Below, piece by piece: positions 30,392 to 39,013 of a DNA stretch of 39,013 nt; the first letter of the stretch is position 1, and each line of letters starts with the position of its first letter. The notes under the pieces were generated by a model. The model was not told the DNA's origin and searched no databases. It saw only the letters and a list, made by a program, of their open reading frames with translations. The position numbers were made by a program, and so were the translations under genes. The stretch spans positions 1-39,013 of the forward strand of contig SLAU01000279.1 of NCBI GenBank assembly GCA_007126675.1, written 5' to 3'. This DNA is from Balneolaceae bacterium. Its GTDB lineage: Bacteria; Bacteroidota; Rhodothermia; Balneolales; Balneolaceae.

Positions 30392-31552
30392 TCATGATTC
30401 AACCGGAATCATTCGGTTCAGTACACCGTCAAGTTTTTTGAGGAAATATTGAACCTGCTCTGTGTTATTACTTTTCCCGAAACTGATCCGGATGCTGGAA
30501 TTTGCAAGTTGGTCTGATAATCCAATTCCTTTCAGAACGTGCGAAGGCTCCACAGCCCCGGATGTGCAGGCCGATCCGTTAGAAACACAAATGCCTTCAA
30601 TATCAAGATTCAGCAGCAGCATTTCCCCGTCAAGCCCTTTTCCGTCTGCGGTTTTAAAACAGACATTAACAATATTCGGTACGGAATTGTCAATATTTCC
30701 ATTAATCTGGTATCGCCCCTTGAAGTTTGCTTCCAGTCCGTCGATCAAAGCCGTTTTTAATTTGCTGAAATGAGCAAGATTTTCATCCATCTCATTAATT
30801 GATAGTTCAAGAGCTTTTGCCATTCCCACAATGCCGGCCACGTTCGAAGTGCCGCCACGTCGCCTGCGTTCTTGCGAACCTCCCTGCAGCCAGGGGATCC
30901 AGGGAGTACCATTGCGAACATACAAAATGCCAACTCCCTTAGGGCCGTATATTTTATGAGCGCTGATGCTAAGCAAATCCACACCGAGCTCCTTCACATT
31001 CACCGGCAATTTGCCCACGCTTTGCACGGTATCGGAATGGAAGGGGATTTTCTTCTCTTTACAAACTTCGGCGATCTCTTTTATGGGTAGTATCGTCCCG
31101 ATCTCGTTATTTACATGCATCAGGCTCACAATGGCCGTTTCTTCAGTAATTGCCTCAGCAACCTGTGCCGCGGTGATCATTCCTTTGGTATCAGGCTCGA
31201 GATATGTTACCCTGCATCCGCTCATTTTTAAACTTTCAGCAGGATGAATAACTGCGTGGTGTTCGATAGGAGAGGTGATGATCTCTTTTTTCCGGGTGGC
31301 ATTCACAACGCCTTTTATAGCCGCATTATCACTTTCGGTGCCGCCGCTTGTAAAAATAATTTCTGATGGTTCCGCACCAATTAATTCAGCGATTAGCTCG
31401 CGGGCATCTTCTATTGCAACTTTGGTATCGCGGCCAAGCTGGTGTGCCGAACTCGCATTTCCGAATTTATCAGTGAAATAGGGTAAAATTTCATCAAGTA
31501 CGCGCCGGTCAACCGGGGTTGTGGCAGCATGATCGAAGTAGATTGAACTCAT
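30392..31552 (-). CDS. Cysteine desulfurase (NifS/IscS family, class V aminotransferase)
   Basis: MSSIYFDHAATTP..., the PLP-Lys motif SAHKIYGPKG and the active-site loop SNGSACTSG. I prefer the ATG at 31552; the ORF track extends to a TTG at 31570. Confidence 0.9.
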   Translation of the reverse strand: MSSIYFDHAATTPVDRRVLDEILPYFTDKFGNASSAHQLGRDTKVAIEDARELIAELIGAEPSEIIFTSGGTESDNAAIKGVVNATRKKEIITSPIEHHAVIHPAESLKMSGCRVTYLEPDTKGMITAAQVAEAITEETAIVSLMHVNNEIGTILPIKEIAEVCKEKKIPFHSDTVQSVGKLPVNVKELGVDLLSISAHKIYGPKGVGILYVRNGTPWIPWLQGGSQERRRRGGTSNVAGIVGMAKALELSINEMDENLAHFSKLKTALIDGLEANFKGRYQINGNIDNSVPNIVNVCFKTADGKGLDGEMLLLNLDIEGICVSNGSACTSGAVEPSHVLKGIGLSDQLANSSIRISFGKSNNTEQVQYFLKKLDGVLNRMIPVES

Positions 31553-31904
31553 AGCAATTAATTTTTTCAACGCAAAAATAGAGAATGTTCAGGTTAAAAA
31601 CAGGGATGGGGAATTTTGAATGAGAAATTATGGAATTTTGAAATTTTGAATGATGAATGATGCATTACGACCTGCCAGTGTTTCCGGCGCTTTTTGCCGG
31701 AATCCTGGTAGCGTCTGATCATCGGGTAAATCGAAATAAAATCTGCGAAAATCAGCGAACTCTGCGAGAACGTTCTCGCGGAGTTACGCTGATGATTCAC
31801 AGAGTTGCGCAGAGCACGGGATTGGGTTAAAACCATTTCCAAACCACCTGTACAACCCGTATTTTATAGAAAACCGGATAACTAATAGAGAAAAAGGACT
31901 AAAA

Positions 31905-33104
31905 ATGGCAAAACTAACCCTGAAAGACGTTAACGAATTCAAAAATAAAACCGTACTGATGCGTGTCGATTTCAATGTTCCCGTGAAAGACGGAGTGATT
32001 TCGGACGACAACCGTATCGTACAGGCACTCGAATCGATCAACTATGTGGTTGAGCGTGGTGCGAAATTAATATTAACCAGCCACCTTGGCCGGCCGGCCG
32101 GTGAGCCGTCGCCGGAGTTCAGCCTGAAACCGGTAGCCGATCACCTTGCAACACTGGTGGATGTACCGGTGCACTTTGCGGAAGACTGCATAGGCGATAA
32201 AGCTGACAGCGTAATTGAAAAAGCCGGGTTTGGCGAAATCGTTCTGCTCGAAAATGTGCGTTTTCATAACGGAGAGAAAAAGAACGATCCTGAATTTGCC
32301 AAAAAACTGGCCAAACATGCCGACCTGTTTGTGAACGATGCATTCGGCAGCAGCCACCGCGCCCATGCTTCCGTGGCGGGTGTAACGGAAGTTCTGCAGC
32401 CATCGGTTTCAGGATTCCTGCTTGAAAAAGAGATCCGCTACCTCGAAGAGAGCGTAAACAACCCGAACCATCCTTTTGTAGCGATACTGGGTGGGGCAAA
32501 AGTGTCCGATAAAATTGGGGTGATCGAAAACCTGCTGGATAAGGTGGATACCATTATAATCGGCGGCGGAATGACCTACACATTCTTCAAGGCAAAAGGT
32601 CTGCCGGTTGGAAACTCACTTGTAGAGGAGGATAAAGTTGACCTGGCGAAGGAACTGCTGCAAAAAGCAGAAAAAGCCGGTGTAAATGTGATGCTGCCTG
32701 TTGACTCGGTTGTTGCTAAAGAGTTCAGCAATGACGCCGAGCACAAAGTGGTGCCGCAGGATGGAATCGAGGATGGCTGGATGGCACTTGATATCGGCCC
32801 CGAGTCGGCCATTGCGTTTGGCAACCAGATCAAAAATGCACGAACCGTACTCTGGAATGGACCGATGGGCGTTTTCGAAATGGAGAACTTTGCAGAGGGC
32901 ACATTCACCGTAGCCAAAGCGCTGGCAGAAGCTACTTCATCGTACGGTGCAACCACCATTATCGGCGGCGGTGATTCCGCATCAGCCATTAAAAAATCGG
33001 GGCTGCAGGATAAAGTATCGCACGTATCCACCGGCGGCGGCGCCAGCCTGGAATACCTGGAAGGGAAAGAACTGCCGGGTGTGGCGGCACTAACGGATAA
33101 ATAA
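31905..33104 (+). CDS. pgk: Phosphoglycerate kinase
   Basis: 399 aa with [16 protein letters not shown] and GGGDSA motifs. Confidence 0.96.
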
Positions 33105-33214
33105 CCGCGGAGGCGCGGAGAGCGCTGAGAGTGGGGTTTTATGAGTAGGACCTGACAGTGTGGTCTGGTGTTTTTCCAGACCTCCTGTAAGCGTCCGGAA
33201 TTTTTTTTAAACCG

Positions 33215-33521
33215 AAAACTAATCTGCGCACACAAGCGTCTCCGCAGTTAATAGAACGCGGATAGACACGGATCGTGCGGATGCTCGCCGATCAAGAAAA
33301 GATAAATATCAGTGAAGATCAGCCTCATCCGCATGATCGGCGTCCCATCAGCCCGTAAATTTTATCACATTCCCTGTGTTACCACAGTGAAAAACAATCA
33401 GCGCCCACTGCGCCTCCGCGGTAAAAAAAACGCGTATCGTGCAGACAATCACCGATCAAGAAAAACAGTGGCTTACGGTCAATTCTTGCGGATATGAAAT
33501 TATTTTACGTATTTATTTATA
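33215..33521 (+). repeat. Repeat R1: ~307-bp non-coding leader upstream of gene A, homologous to 38687-39013
   Basis: It aligns by eye along its whole length with R2 (aaaacYaatctgcg ... gatcgtgcgga ... gatcaagaaaagataaa ... ccgcatgatcggcgt ... aaattattttacgtattt). It is built internally from two related half-units. Confidence 0.85.
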
Positions 33522-33635
33522 CAAGCATACCGCTTTGTCGGTAATGTCTTCTTCAATTTTTATTATTTGTGATGTAAAACAGTTCAGGCATTTTTAACCG
33601 ACGGGCAGGTTAACCTAATCCCACCGGAGGTTATT

Positions 33636-34370
33636 ATGAAAAAATGGTTGATACTCAATTTCTCTCTCTCTCTCTCTCTCCTGATTGTGCTGCCGGTTTT
33701 CGGGCAGATCACGATCAACGATAATGGTAATGTGGCCATAAAAACGGAAAACACGGTGTCCGTTCGTGCCTTAAATGTTGAGTGCAACGGCAATAACAAT
33801 TGTGGACATACTGGTACCAGGTATGGTATATACTCGATAGCGGATGGTGCCTACGGGTCGTACGGTATTCGCGGACATGCTCAGAACGGCTATGGCGGTT
33901 ATGGGGTGTATGGGTCGGCATCCAACAATACAATCAGCTACGCGGGCTATTTTACCGGGGATGTTTATACTACGGGTGATTATCTGACTTCCGATGAACG
34001 ATTCAAGACCAACATTCGCTCCCTCCATGATGAAAATGTGATGGACAAGCTCGGTCAGTTGACCCCGGCCCGTTTTGAATATTTGGGGGCCGGCGAACTG
34101 CGACAGCAGGGTCTGCCTGAATCACACGCCAAAGTGGGAGAACATCTGGGGATACTGGACGGAGAAGTAGAAAACCTATTCCCGGAACTGGTCCGTGATG
34201 TAGTGCATTTTCTCAATGAAAACGACATAGGCAATGGAAACCCGCCCGATACAGTTATTACCAAAGCCGTCAATTACAACGGATTGATTCCCGTGCTAAT
34301 CACCGCAATACAGGAACAGCAGCAAAAAATAGAGGAACTGGAAGCGCGGATTGAAGCGCTGGAACAATAA
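33636..34370 (+). CDS. Gene A: secreted tail-fibre-domain protein with a Gly/Tyr-rich N-domain and a Peptidase S74 intramolecular-chaperone (self-cleaving) C-domain
   Basis: GGAGG lies 5 nt upstream. The signal peptide is MKKWLILNFSLSLSLLIVLPVFG|Q. The protein has YG-rich repeats and YAGYFTGDVYTTGDYLTSDERFKTNI, with Ser119 and Lys124 in S-x4-K spacing. It also has GILDGEVENLFPELV and a C-terminal coiled coil, AIQEQQQKIEELEARIEALEQ. Confidence 0.8.
   Translation: MKKWLILNFSLSLSLLIVLPVFGQITINDNGNVAIKTENTVSVRALNVECNGNNNCGHTGTRYGIYSIADGAYGSYGIRGHAQNGYGGYGVYGSASNNTISYAGYFTGDVYTTGDYLTSDERFKTNIRSLHDENVMDKLGQLTPARFEYLGAGELRQQGLPESHAKVGEHLGILDGEVENLFPELVRDVVHFLNENDIGNGNPPDTVITKAVNYNGLIPVLITAIQEQQQKIEELEARIEALEQ
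33661..33680 (+). repeat. Perfect (TC)10 dinucleotide microsatellite inside the signal-peptide codons of gene A
   Basis: The sequence tctctctctctctctctctc was read directly. It encodes part of FSLSLSL. Confidence 0.95.
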
Positions 34371-34406
34371 TTGAACCGTAATGGATGAATATTCCGGAGG
34401 TATGAT

Positions 34407-35327
34407 ATGATAGCAGAGAAAAAAACAATATTCGGACTAGTTGCAGCCGCAGCCGTTTTGCTTGCGGCCCTGGCGGTTTCCTGCGGCGACGACCCGGTTA
34501 GCGCCGAACCCGAAGATGAGATTGAGCTTGCCGGTACCTCTTGGAAACTTACTTCTGTTGAATCGGTTTCGGACACACTGTTCGACGGCTACGAAAACGG
34601 CATCTGGCAGGTGCCTGAAACCGCGCAGTATTTGCTGGAATTCACCCCGGACAGTTCCGTGTATGCTTTTCTCTACTGCGAAGAATGTCCGGATGGTGAA
34701 GGCAGCCGGTTTGAAGTTGCCGGGGAAGATTCACTTTCCATAAATCTTATCTGCGAATCCGGCTCAGTTTGCCAGAAAAATATTCCGGTCAGGGAGCGTC
34801 TGGAGTCGGTAGTAACCGTTGAGCAGGTGGGAGAAACCCTGAGAGCCGAATACGTTTTTACAGACGATGAGAATGAAGAGTTCCGGGGAAGGATGCATTT
34901 CAGCCGTGCTGAAAATGTGAGGCCGGAGCCGGTGCCTTTTGAAGTATTAAAACAACAATGGCTGGTTAGAAAATGTGGAATAAATACCGGGAACCTGGAA
35001 TTTGATGAAGAGAATGAAAATCTCAGCCGGTTTGAACTGATCATAACCACACAGGAAGAGTTTGACTACTATATAACTTGCAATGAAGAAACTGGAGTAG
35101 ATATGGATGAATATTTCGTGCTTGCCGGGTTAAGCAGTGTTCATCATAGCTGTGTAGATGTTCCAGAACATACGATTTATCTGCTCAATGATATATTGTA
35201 TTATAGTGTTGCGATAAGAGAAGCAGCGTGTGATATGCCGGAGAGTGCACAGTATATTGTAAGCCTTCCAAGGACCTATCAAGATCATCTGATAGAGTTT
35301 AAAGTATTTTGGAGGGTTTGGTTATGA
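34407..35327 (+). CDS. Gene B: Cys-rich lipoprotein with a META-like N-domain and a PrcB-C-like C-domain (domain calls by eye)
   Basis: GGAGG lies 6 nt upstream and the lipobox is LAVSC|GDDP. The LAGTSWKLTSVE motif is typical of META/HslJ domains. The C-terminal half (ELIITTQEEFDYY...VDMDEYFVLAG...IYLLNDILYYSV...AQYIVSLP...IEFKVF) resembles the PrcB_C pattern. Confidence 0.75.
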   Translation: MIAEKKTIFGLVAAAAVLLAALAVSCGDDPVSAEPEDEIELAGTSWKLTSVESVSDTLFDGYENGIWQVPETAQYLLEFTPDSSVYAFLYCEECPDGEGSRFEVAGEDSLSINLICESGSVCQKNIPVRERLESVVTVEQVGETLRAEYVFTDDENEEFRGRMHFSRAENVRPEPVPFEVLKQQWLVRKCGINTGNLEFDEENENLSRFELIITTQEEFDYYITCNEETGVDMDEYFVLAGLSSVHHSCVDVPEHTIYLLNDILYYSVAIREAACDMPESAQYIVSLPRTYQDHLIEFKVFWRVWL

Positions 35328-37570
35328 AATATTGCCTCTTAATGATAGCTTTTCTGATTACAACTTCAACTGTGCTTTCACAGGAAAGCGGGAATTACTA
35401 TTGGTATAACGGTGAGAAAAAATATTTAGATTTAAAAACAGATGAACACTTTATTTTGCTTGATCAATTTATAGATGTAAACACTTTGATAGCTGAATTT
35501 AATATTGAAAGTGATCGAATCGGAGAGATTAAGAAAGCAAACATCGGTTCCTATATGGTTCCTCGTCAATCGGGAATCGAGTTCAATAATAAAGATTATC
35601 ATTTTCTAATCATTTCAGGGGAAGAAAATAATATTAATCTGAATTCTCCAAAAATTTCTTATCATGCGCCTTTTTTTAAGTCGAAATCCGGAGAAAGGGT
35701 TGGTTTGTCGAATCTGTTTTATGTCCGCCTGCATCGTGAAGGTGATATCAAGATACTCGAAGAACTCGCAGAACAGTATCATGTAGATATACTTGGTAAT
35801 AACTATTACATGCCGTTGTGGTACACTCTGGCATCCAACCGAAGCAGTTCCGGGAATGCACTTGAAATGGCCAACATATTTTATGAAAGCGGTTATTTCA
35901 AAGCTGCACATCCGGATTTTATTTTTTTTAATATGATTAATTCATCGACGGTGAGTGATCCGTTTTTTCTCGATCAATGGAATTTAAACAATACCGGTCA
36001 ATATGGAGTAGGAATTCATGGAGCTGATATTCAAATGATTAATGCATGGGAAATCACAGAGGGGAGGGAAGAAATTATTACAGCTGTAAATGATCGTGGT
36101 ATATCCAAAATCCATCCGGATTTACCAAATATACATCCGGTCAGTTTTGACGCGGAAGGCGGCGTAGGCGAACCGGAACCTCAATCATCGAATGATGATC
36201 CGCCTCCGAGCGTTGTACGCGGTCCGCATGGAACCGCGGTGGCCGGTATTATTGGTGCGATGGCAAATAATGAAGAGGGGATTGCAGGTATTGCACCAAA
36301 TGGTATGCTTATGTCAATCAGCTCGAATATGGAAACGTCTTTTGATGGCGTTATGAAATTCGCATCAGCGATTGAATTTGCATGGGAAAATGGTGCATCT
36401 ATAATCAATAACTCTTGGAGCTTTCATCCTGAATTTGCGTTAGATTGTATGGATGAAGCTATAAATAATGCAATCAATCATGGAAGAAATGGCTTAGGAA
36501 CTGTATTGATATTTTCTACAGGTAATAATGATGGGAATTTAAGGTGGCCTTCAAACAACCCGGATGTCATTGCAGTCGGAGCGTCAAGTATGTGTGATGA
36601 GCGAAAATCACCCACTTCGTGTGATACGGAAAGCGCATGGGGAAGCAATTTTGGAACAGGTCTTGATGTCGTGGCCCCGGGTGTGCTAATACCAACAACA
36701 GATAATGCGTTCGAAGGTTATAATGATGAAATTGATCCAATCGAAATTCATATTATCAATAATGGAACTTTGGTATCAGAAGATTATGAAAATACAAGTT
36801 ACACAATTTGGTTTCATGGTACATCTGCAGCAGCACCTCATGTAGCAGGCATCGCCTCTCTGATGTTATCAATCAATGATGATCTGACTTATGATGAAGT
36901 CCGCTATATCATTGAAAGCTCTGCCGAAAAAGTTGGCGGCTATACGTATACAATGGGCGCCGGTGCACGGCCCGATCTTACCTGGAACGAGGAGATGGGA
37001 TATGGACGGGTGAATGCGTATCGTGCGCTTATAGGAACTATTGAGAACCACGGAGCTACACTGGGAATCGAAAAACCCCTGGTTACCCTGCCCCTGTTTG
37101 AGGATATGGACTTCCACGAAGATGTATACCTGGCAAGCGGCTCTACGCTTACGATCGAAGCAAGGGAAAACCCGGTAACATTAACCTCCAATTCCGGTTC
37201 GGTTACCATCGGTAAACCGGCAACGGGAACTACTCAGGCGAAGCCACTGGCCGGCGGCGGGGATGATTCCGGTGGTGATGTAGATGAGATCGGTTCAGAA
37301 ACGCCTCAGAAGATTGCACTTTCTGCCAACTATCCAAATCCTTTCAACCCGGTTACGACTATCCGTTATGAACTTCCTGTAAACAGCAATGTCCGCCTGG
37401 AAGTGTACGACATCCTCGGACGCCGCGTAGCCGTATTGGTGGAAGGGCTAATAGAATCGGGTGCGCATGAAGTAGCATTCGATGCGTCAAACCTTGCCAG
37501 CGGGGTTTACTTATACCGGCTTTCAACCGCCGATTTTGTACAGACACGGCAGATGGTGCTGGTGAAGTAG
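35324..37570 (+). CDS. Gene C: S8-family serine peptidase (subtilase) with an N-terminal propeptide-like region and a T9SS type-A C-terminal sorting domain
   Basis: The ATG at 35324 lies 7 nt after GGAGGG and overlaps the stop of B (ATGA). The signal peptide is MKYCLLMIAFLITTSTVLSQ. The catalytic triad motifs are AVNDRG (Asp codon 36092-36094), HGTAVAGIIGA and GTSAAAPHVAG. The C-terminus NYPNPFNPVTTIRYELP...GVYLYRL...MVLVK is the T9SS sorting domain. Confidence 0.88.
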   Translation: MKYCLLMIAFLITTSTVLSQESGNYYWYNGEKKYLDLKTDEHFILLDQFIDVNTLIAEFNIESDRIGEIKKANIGSYMVPRQSGIEFNNKDYHFLIISGEENNINLNSPKISYHAPFFKSKSGERVGLSNLFYVRLHREGDIKILEELAEQYHVDILGNNYYMPLWYTLASNRSSSGNALEMANIFYESGYFKAAHPDFIFFNMINSSTVSDPFFLDQWNLNNTGQYGVGIHGADIQMINAWEITEGREEIITAVNDRGISKIHPDLPNIHPVSFDAEGGVGEPEPQSSNDDPPPSVVRGPHGTAVAGIIGAMANNEEGIAGIAPNGMLMSISSNMETSFDGVMKFASAIEFAWENGASIINNSWSFHPEFALDCMDEAINNAINHGRNGLGTVLIFSTGNNDGNLRWPSNNPDVIAVGASSMCDERKSPTSCDTESAWGSNFGTGLDVVAPGVLIPTTDNAFEGYNDEIDPIEIHIINNGTLVSEDYENTSYTIWFHGTSAAAPHVAGIASLMLSINDDLTYDEVRYIIESSAEKVGGYTYTMGAGARPDLTWNEEMGYGRVNAYRALIGTIENHGATLGIEKPLVTLPLFEDMDFHEDVYLASGSTLTIEARENPVTLTSNSGSVTIGKPATGTTQAKPLAGGGDDSGGDVDEIGSETPQKIALSANYPNPFNPVTTIRYELPVNSNVRLEVYDILGRRVAVLVEGLIESGAHEVAFDASNLASGVYLYRLSTADFVQTRQMVLVK

Positions 37571-37623
37571 TAGATTTGAAAATTAGTTGATCAGGGAATC
37601 AGGGACCTGTCAGCACCCACCGG

Positions 37624-37660
37624 ATCTGACAGCGTCCCGGGTTCGAATTCAGATTTTTTT
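37624..37660 (+). terminator. Possible weak intrinsic terminator after gene C
   Basis: A 6-bp stem atctga (37624-37629) / tcagat (37649-37654) is followed by a T7 run ending at 37660. The stem is short and the loop is large. Confidence 0.35.
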
Positions 37661-37662
37661 AG

Positions 37663-37722
37663 CAGGAACAGCAGCAAACAATCGAGCAACTGGAAGCGTG
37701 GATTGAAGCGCTGGAACAATAA
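37663..37722 (+). pseudogene. Remnant of the last 19 codons of a gene-A paralogue
   Basis: caggaacagcagcaaacaatcgagcaactggaagcgtggattgaagcgctggaacaataa matches 34311-34370 (QEQQQTIEQLEAWIEALEQ* against QEQQQKIEELEARIEALEQ*). An in-frame TAG lies immediately upstream. Confidence 0.7.
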
Positions 37723-37768
37723 ATCGAACCGAAACGGATTGAATGGAGTAACACTCCGGAGGCCTTCT

Positions 37769-38687
37769 ATGGATGCAGAGAGTAAAACAACAATTGGATT
37801 TGTGGCAGCCGCATCAATCGCACTGATGACGATACTTGTGATTTCCTGCGGGGACGATCCCGTACAGCCGGGCGCAGACCCGATACCGGATCTTGCCGGA
37901 ACCGCCTGGAAACTGACAACCGTTGAATCGATCTCCGACACGTTGTTCGACAGCTACGAAAACGGCACATGGCAGGTGCCCGATGAAGAGCAGTACCTGA
38001 TTGAATTTACGGCAGACAGCTCCCTGTTTGCTTTTCTTTATTGCGAGGAGTGTCCGGATAGTGAAGAGAGCCGTTTTGAAGTTGCCGGTGAGGATTCGGT
38101 TTCTATAAATCTGAACTGTGAATCCCGTTCTGTTTGCCAGAAAAATATACCGGTCAGAGAACGCCTGGAGTCGGTAGTAACCGTTGAGCAGGAAAATGAA
38201 ACCCTGATAGCAGAATACGTTTTTACAGGCGATGAGAGTGAAGAGTTCCGGGGAAGGATGCATTTCAGCCGTGCTCATAATGTGAGACCGGAGTCGGTGC
38301 CTTTTGAAGTATTAAGAGGGCAATGGCCGGTATGGAACTGCGGGTTTAATGCCGGGAATCTGGAATTAGATGATGACAATGAAAACCTTAGCCAGCTTGA
38401 ACTGATTATAACCACACAGGAAGAGTTTGACCACTATATAACCTGCAATGAAGAAACCGAAGTGGACATGGAGGAATACTTTGTGCTTGCCGGTTATAGC
38501 AGGATGCATCATAGCTGTGTCTATATTTCAGGACATACGGTGTATCTGCTTAATGATATATTGTATTATAGTGTTAAGTGAAGCAGCGTGTCACGTTCCG
38601 GAGAGAGCACGTTATATGGTACGTCTTTCCAGGGTGTACCTGGACCATCCGATTGAATTTAAAGTATTTTGGAGGACTTGGATGTAA
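37769..38687 (+). pseudogene. Gene B2: diverged paralogue of lipoprotein B, disrupted by a 5-nt indel with a TGA at 38579-38581
   Basis: GGAGG lies 6 nt upstream of the ATG at 37769 and the lipobox is LVISC|GDDP. B2 is colinear with B throughout. After ...LNDILYYSVK* the homology continues in the +1 frame (EAACHVPERARYMVRLSRVYLDHPIEFKVFWRTWM*) up to 38687. Confidence 0.7.
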
Positions 38688-39013
38688 AAACCAATCTGCG
38701 TCCACAGCGCCTCTGCGGTTAATATAACACGGATAAACACGGATCGTGCGGAGAATCGCTGATCAAGAAAAGATAAAAATCTGTGAAGATCTGTCCCATC
38801 CGCATGATCGGCGTTCTATTAGCCCATAAATTTTATCACATTCCACATCTTACCGTAATAAAACCAATCTGCACCCACAGCGCCTCTGTCCCGTAGGGAT
38901 CCCTTTGGGACGGTTAAAAGAACGGGATCGTGCGGACAATCACCGATCAAGGAAAAACAGTGGTTTACGGTCAATTCTTGCAGAAGTTAAATTATTTTAC
39001 GTATTTGTTCATA
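38687..39013 (+). repeat. Repeat R2: second copy of the R1 leader, truncated by the window end
   Basis: It is colinear with 33215-33521. It contains an extra 22-nt double mini-hairpin, tcccgtaggga tccctttggga (38889-38910). Confidence 0.85.

Follow-up and report, generated by a model that had tools for sequence, protein, structure and literature searches.

The window, by which we mean the whole stretch of 39,013 nt of Balneolaceae DNA analysed here, has the setting of an ordinary chromosome, with rpoC-like, proS-like, PGK and other housekeeping genes. Relatives of its PGK assign the organism to Balneolaceae, the nearest of them being found in uncultured Rhodohalobacter MAGs (85% identity). 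Short tandem repeats with periods of 7, 8 and 10 lie between a cysteine-desulfurase-like gene and the PGK gene (31624-31767). The features that matter for what follows are given below, n being the number of TC units in the tract.

33235..33635, + strand: conserved 5′ leader, about 400 bp of intergenic DNA (about 430 bp including the start region), with the invariant blocks TTATTTTACGTATTT and CAGGCATTTTTAACC
33626..33630, + strand: Shine-Dalgarno motif GGAGG, 5 nt before ATG1 and 13 nt before ATG2
33636..33638, + strand: ATG1, in frame if n = 1 mod 3; yields MKKWLILNF(SL)n..., a canonical Sec-type signal peptide
33644..33646, + strand (+2 frame): ATG2, in frame if n = 2 mod 3; yields MVDTQF(LS)n...
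33661..33680, + strand: (TC)10 tract, the proposed hypermutable element, perfect and without mismatch, at codons 9-15 (FSLSLSL) of gene A
33687..33689, + strand: in-frame GTG, codon 18 of gene A, the sole start left in OFF alleles; the predicted product has no signal peptide
33636..34370, + strand: gene A, 244 aa, with a predicted signal peptide of about 23 aa (VFG/Q) and a Gly/Tyr-rich N-terminal part
34407..35327, + strand: gene B, a predicted lipoprotein (...LAVSCGDD) with its own GGAGG
35324..37570, + strand: gene C, an S8 subtilase with a T9SS C-terminal sorting domain, called as 748 aa
37663..38689, + strand: degenerate second module, made up of an A remnant, the B′ ORF and a B-like 3′ stretch
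38706..39013, + strand: second leader copy, 83-89% identical to the first, cut by the window end

The C-terminal domain of gene A is a Peptidase_S74 intramolecular chaperone, as in tail-fibre-like proteins ('tail fiber domain-containing protein'). Residues 119-187 match Pfam PF13884 with E = 2e-8 and 34.8 bits (cut-off 22); A2, a diverged allele described below, scores 58.9 bits against Peptidase_S74. A search of PDB sequences gave one weak match, to the phage long-tail-fibre chain 6f45_A (E = 0.12), across the SDxRxK region. There TSDERFKTNI of gene A aligns with SSDRRIKKDI, and the Ser...Lys motif at the domain start is present. We take the S-D-x-R-x-K motif to be the autocleavage site of the Peptidase_S74 domain, which makes it a putative one in gene A. 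No match to a T9SS C-terminal sorting domain (Por_Secre_tail) was found in gene A; gene C has one, as has gene M, which lies beyond the window end. Codon 174 of gene A (34156-34158) is Asp in the window (GILDGEVENL) and Ala in the near-identical proteins P0001, P0017 and P0019.

Gene B had no match in Pfam or NCBIfam, even at E = 1. The A-B gap is 36 nt, and the ATG of gene C overlaps the stop codon of gene B (ATGA). Further downstream, the A remnant of the degenerate module (37663-37722) corresponds to the last 60 nt of gene A and is 93% identical to its 3′ end. The B′ ORF (37769-38581) has about 80% DNA identity to gene B, and past its stop codon the stretch to 38689 matches the 3′ end of gene B at 74%. 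Two public contigs, L006 and L009, align on both sides of the degenerate module and carry between these flanks a complete copy of A whose leader differs and which has a TC tract of its own.

Several of the predicted signal-peptidase sites have Gln at position +1: VFG/Q in A (33702-33707), VLS/Q in C (35381-35386), GFS/Q in M (L001:15550-15558) and GFT/Q in A2. They recall the 'Q-rule' of N-terminal pyroglutamate in Bacteroidetes.

The tract and its reading frames

The TC tract lies 25 nt past ATG1 and 17 nt past ATG2, and encodes Leu/Ser repeats in all three frames. An earlier note on this DNA had placed a (TC)10 tract at 33661-33680, in the signal-peptide codons of gene A, and had seen no comparable dinucleotide tract in the window. 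Re-reading the position and the sequence confirmed both statements, the second longest dinucleotide run in the 39 kb having only 4 units. None of 100 dinucleotide-preserving shuffles reproduced the tract, even when 2 mismatches were tolerated, and dinucleotide runs of at least 6 units were absent from 1.39 Mb of control DNA (about 96 loci from other genomes). Every TC tract examined in this work was uninterrupted and perfect. As is characteristic of SSR contingency loci, the repeat is long and perfect, it is situated in the 5′ part of the coding sequence, and its unit is not a multiple of three.

ATG1 and ATG2 are 8 nt apart and in different frames, and the third frame is without a start. In the manner of licA, initiation codons are present 5′ of the repeat in two of the three frames, use of ATG2 being putative. 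With 7 or 13 units the ATG1 frame is maintained. With 9 units it stops after 28 aa (...PDCAAGFRADHDQR followed by the stop codon), and with 11 units after 16 aa. In the 11-unit state ATG2 at 33644 opens a full-length ORF corresponding to P0001 (242 aa), the commonest assembled state. When n = 0 mod 3, the ATG1 and ATG2 frames both stop within 12-28 codons. A full-length protein is predicted for two of the three tract-length classes.

These computations bear on four predictions of the earlier note. The early stop foreseen for the loss of one unit was recovered, changes by 3 units did keep the frame, and the GTG that it had named as the next in-frame start is indeed in frame at 33687. In OFF alleles gene callers started from this codon, which yielded P0017 and P0019, each of 227 aa. 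The prediction that gain of one unit leads to a stop holds for the ATG1 frame and fails for the ATG2 frame, which reads through.

The N-terminus read from ATG2 lacks a basic n-region. ATG2 is kept in all six variants of the type-1 leader (the leader of gene A and its close copies), including contig L118, where it is preserved though the overlapping Trp codon of the ATG1 frame is changed to Cys (TGG to TGT). Of the 29 ORF upstream regions listed, most are A-rich with no Shine-Dalgarno motif; a clear GGAGG at a distance of 5-7 nt from the start is confined to the rpoC-like ORF, gene A, gene B and B′. Because AAAAAA precedes ATG2 and most genes of the window are A-rich upstream without a Shine-Dalgarno motif, a start at ATG2 is not implausible. 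We regard the 11-unit ATG2 state as a real ORF with a putative product.

Tract length in public assemblies

Relatives of gene A were gathered through its 90% identity cluster. Tract lengths were read from the contig DNA and compared on assembled consensus sequences. The products in the cluster have 244, 242, 227 and 213 aa and differ mainly in their N-termini; the exact 244-aa product of the window had no record in the contig index. More than 10 public contigs, which stem from several samples and were built with several assemblers, contain the tract, and those carrying the gene A locus came from soda-lake sediment metagenomes and MAGs.

The earlier note had proposed comparing tract length across strains and MAGs, and at the gene A locus the length does vary, between 9, 10 and 11 units. 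Eleven units were found in L001-L005 and L113 (sources GCA_007135305.1, ERZ27301261, ERZ27301263, JGI 3300000365, SRR490129 and SRR7083929), ten solely in the window and nine in L008. Since some assemblies may come from common samples or reads (e.g. JGI 3300000365 and the SRR4901xx runs), the independent observations are fewer than the contigs. Alignment of the window with L001 covered 15,372 bp and contained 3 mismatches and one 2-nt gap, the sole indel, which is the tract. The 9-unit contig L008 belongs to a strain that has diverged further (about 97% identity, with indels at many intergenic places), and we count this against a switch. We likewise count against it that ATG1-ON is represented by the window alone.

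The nine distinct alleles with the type-1 leader fall into the ATG1 frame (one), the ATG2 frame (five) and the OFF class (three), numbers too small to test selection. The excess of the ATG2 frame (5/9) is not significant (hand-computed binomial tail about 0.15). The gene A OFF products P0017 and P0019 match P0001 throughout except for the start residue. Two further properties of SSR contingency loci are found here: the repeat number differs on otherwise identical flanks, and in-frame and out-of-frame alleles both occur with intact ORFs downstream. Contig ends near the tract were considered as evidence of length heterogeneity and rejected, the repeated leader explaining such breaks equally well.

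The shared leader, gene M and other copies

The conserved leader is not confined to gene A; it precedes four other genes or remnants, namely the A2 allele, gene M, a remnant ORF and a homologue in a different species. In L001 and L113 the second leader copy, which is cut off in the window, continues with ATG1/ATG2, a (TC)n tract and then gene M, situated just past the window end. Gene M encodes a reprolysin-like metalloprotease with a Por_Secre_tail (T9SS) domain. Its tract has 11 units in L001, 12 in L113, L114 and L115, and 8 in L116. Pairwise alignments at this locus were free of mismatches and differed by single gaps: 2 nt between L001 and L113 (15,192 bp aligned), 6 nt between L001 and L116 (4,564 bp) and 8 nt between L113 and L116 (4,566 bp). 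In the comparisons at A and at M alike, no site proved more mutable than the tract. Apart from the start residue, the OFF forms of M (P0021 and P0036, 704 aa) agree throughout with the ON form P0035 (719 aa). The in-frame alleles, with 8 (P0038) and 11 (P0035) units, are exactly 3 units apart. One 76-kb contig has 11 units at A and 12 at M, and the MAG GCA_007135305.1 has 11 at both; the two tracts therefore vary independently.

A2, carried by other strains, is a diverged allele of gene A, 49% identical to the window allele (A1), with the type-1 leader and located 3′ of an identical PGK. Its tract has 16 units in L110, 11 in L111 and 17 in L118. The last ~20 codons are common to A1 and A2. Contig L118 has a further leader copy (L118:3640-4539), whose (TC)11 leads into no more than a 31-aa remnant ORF. 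At the sequence ATGA the remnant ends and a B-like lipoprotein gene begins, the stop codon of the one overlapping the start codon of the other; the B-like gene likewise overlaps a gene for an S8/T9SS protease. From this arrangement, the L118 switch might gate the downstream genes through translational coupling.

The homologue in a different species is in L117 (GCA_964535495.1), from a Rhodohalobacter-like organism whose PGK is 85% identical to that of the window. L117 has the type-1 leader blocks, GGAGG, both ATGs, a 17-unit tract and then an A2-like gene. T9SS-tailed proteins occur in runs 3′ of A-type genes in L009:2256-6040 and L117:1762-7418, and these runs include trypsin-like and LDL-receptor/SGL beta-propeller types. 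In these two contigs the fibre genes with tracts thus stand at the head of variable arrays of secreted proteins. Another leader, type 2 (ATGATAAAACAACC...TTTTAC), precedes further copies of A with 4, 8 and 12 units. All three type-2 alleles are OFF, which would also fit genes drifting towards loss.

One A2 contig is a mosaic. In L111:4137-4400 the far upstream part is that of L110, the last ~55 nt before the tract are those of the A1 leader of the window, and the sequence after it is A2; homology of the window to L110 and L111 stops at the last base of the tract, 33680. The position of the junction suggests recombination or gene conversion.

The leader likely holds the promoter region. Scans for sigma-70 promoters and terminators gave nothing above shuffle expectation, so we name no promoter. 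A search of 31500-39013 against Rfam returned one sub-threshold chance match, and none in the leader. A 41-nt motif (...ACGGATCGTGCGGAnnATCnCCGATCAAGAAAA...) with a GATCG...CGATC dyad is present in four copies, two per leader and 164-184 nt apart (33261-33301, 33425-33465, 38732-38772 and 38916-38956), and may be a candidate binding site for a regulator.

We also looked for the leader and the tract more widely. More distant homologues of A and M had ordinary signal peptides and no Leu-Ser repeat. The leader pattern ATGGTTGATACTCANNNTCTCTCTC had no match in genome contigs, and a similar pattern had none in a metagenome contig collection that does not cover JGI 3300000365, which has the sequence. 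A metagenome contig scan guided by the gene A protein returned distant relatives only (at most 44% identity, partial), with no run of at least 6 units.

The proposed switch and its alternatives

We propose that the (TC)n tract is a translational phase-variation switch of gene A operating by slipped-strand mispairing, a reading to which we assign a probability of about 80%. The earlier note had named such a switch as a candidate, and its suggestion is now supported by length variation on near-identical backgrounds and by the intact ORFs of OFF alleles. Gain or loss of TC units at replication would set whether the mature protein is read in frame from ATG1, from ATG2 or from neither. When n = 1 mod 3, as in the window (n = 10), ATG1 would be ON, well spaced from GGAGG and followed by the canonical MKKW... 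signal. When n = 2 mod 3 (n = 11) ATG2 would be in frame, giving probably a weaker or alternative ON state. When n = 0 mod 3 (n = 9) the gene would be OFF, the signal-less GTG start alone remaining. Steps of 3 units would keep the frame while lengthening or shortening the hydrophobic core by Leu-Ser. The switch would form part of the ~430-bp leader, together with the promoter region, GGAGG and the two ATGs. The Balneolaceae lineage has placed this leader before several secreted or T9SS genes, the copies varying independently. We infer how and how fast the tract mutates, what this does to protein level and export, the use of ATG2, any adaptive benefit and any polarity on genes B and C; a polar effect on these two genes is a possibility. 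Mismatch repair normally corrects dinucleotide loops, and this counts against a switch.

The tract might instead be an unstable microsatellite of no adaptive value, with A, M and their relatives dispensable or decaying and no switch under selection. This would agree with the majority of assembled alleles lying outside the ATG1 frame, with the OFF state of the type-2 alleles and with the gene remnants nearby (A′ and B′ in the window, the 31-aa ORF in L118). We consider it unlikely, though worth keeping in mind, because the tracts are perfect and occupy a fixed signal-peptide position in five leader copies and a second species, where neutral repeats should become interrupted or collapse. The OFF alleles, moreover, carry no other disabling mutation across 227-704 codons, and alleles 3 units apart keep the frame. 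That OFF alleles are otherwise intact and 3-unit variants stay in frame argues for a reversible switch rather than gene decay. The same (LS)n in all frames, together with in-frame alleles of 8, 11 and 16-17 units, could alternatively mean that the number of Leu-Ser pairs tunes signal-peptide length or export within the frame, and that frameshifted alleles are incidental. With a 2-nt unit, however, two of three single steps shift the frame, and frameshifted alleles are common in the assemblies; we hold tuning of this kind to be very improbable.

Nor do we give much credence to a role exerted by the DNA or RNA itself, in which the polypyrimidine/polypurine tract would, for instance, form H-DNA or enhance translation as an unstructured pyrimidine-rich stretch, independently of the frame. 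Triplex DNA can arise from (TC)n·(GA)n mirror repeats, and no competing match to a known RNA family was found. The tract lies 3′ of both starts, however, frame arithmetic explains all the called ORF variants, and nothing in the data points specifically to such a role, which leaves it a very slight chance. The chance that the length differences are a sequencing or assembly artefact, through PCR stutter or repeat collapse, is slighter still. Dinucleotide repeats do stutter in amplified libraries, and several contigs are broken within the repeated leader or close to it, L112 stopping 50 nt short of the tract. Against this, equal lengths recur across assemblies, with 11 units at A in 7 contigs and 12 at M in three. 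Of the two outcomes that the earlier note had regarded as fatal to its proposal, a length invariant in related strains and an assembly artefact, neither materialized. The tracts, at 8-36 nt, are short relative to typical short-read lengths, and differences of 3, 4 and 5 units far exceed stutter.

The phase-variation switch could have a wider form. The ~430-bp leader would then be a portable 'switch cassette', copied before at least four different secreted or T9SS genes and retained across species. It would give each gene an independent stochastic switch with three states (strong, weak, off) and serve also as a recombination anchor at which fibre alleles are swapped, its copies together making up a phasome. 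The recombination part of this reading cites the L111 mosaic with its junction at the tract. We advance it tentatively, as a possibility somewhat short of an even chance.

Similar switches are known in other bacteria. In H. pylori oipA, CT repeats in the signal-peptide region turn the gene ON and OFF by frameshift through slipped-strand mispairing, and many tract-length patterns occur among strains (PMC10564699). Gene A is like oipA and other Hop genes in its CT/TC unit, in the 5′ coding position within the signal peptide and in the frameshift ON/OFF, here predicted. It differs in that the products are an S74 fibre-like protein and a T9SS metalloprotease, unlike the Hop porins, and in its host, a free-living haloalkaliphilic Balneolaceae rather than a host-adapted pathogen. 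The second ATG, moreover, makes two of the three frames productive (predicted), unlike in oipA. No homology to the Hop family was found, the Pfam matches being Peptidase_S74 only for A and reprolysin plus Por_Secre_tail for M.

In H. influenzae licA (lic1), with its CAAT repeat, start codons lie in two of the three frames and the repeat number picks the start (PMC2212159). Gene A is similar in having the repeat just 3′ of alternative start codons in two of three frames, whereas licA has a tetranucleotide unit, a cytoplasmic choline kinase as its product, and measured rates and phenotypes. The opa genes of Neisseria are a multigene family with a variable leader, in which CTCTT repeats encode the hydrophobic core of the leader and the copies switch independently. 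A pyrimidine-rich repeat in the leader core and a variable leader common to a gene family are shared with our system; the pentanucleotide unit, the beta-barrel adhesins and the human-restricted pathogen hosts of opa are not. Opa phase variation is listed in PMC11868660. The type III mod genes of Mycoplasma contain (AG)n of about 12 units with length-dependent premature termination (PMC3498834). They are like gene A in having a dinucleotide repeat inside the coding region and a premature stop that depends on its length. They differ from gene A in that mod is a cytoplasmic methyltransferase, lacking both a signal peptide and the paired start codons. We see the likeness to oipA, licA, opa and mod as one of mechanism only, the proteins being non-homologous.

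In the literature searched we came across no earlier report of phase variation through repeats, whether in T9SS cargo or in Balneolaceae. Contingency genes driven by repeats are, as a rule, portrayed as typical of host-adapted pathogens with small genomes (PMC5909438). The switch proposed here would be of a known type; what sets it apart is the free-living host, the reuse of the cassette and the population evidence in public assemblies. To our knowledge, phase variation in the FCB group proceeds mainly through DNA inversion.

The differences between assemblies show directly that the tracts vary in natural populations. They also affect annotation: depending on tract length, three N-termini (242, 244 and 227 aa) are called, so that the signal peptide is hidden and a single gene is split. 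If the switching is real, life in soda-lake sediments would include turning secreted proteases and surface fibres on and off stochastically. Speculatively, this could help the cells to evade phages, to share the cost of public goods or to hedge their bets. Were the cassette reading true as well, an environmental member of the FCB group would have a 'phasome' governing extracellular proteolysis and surface fibres.
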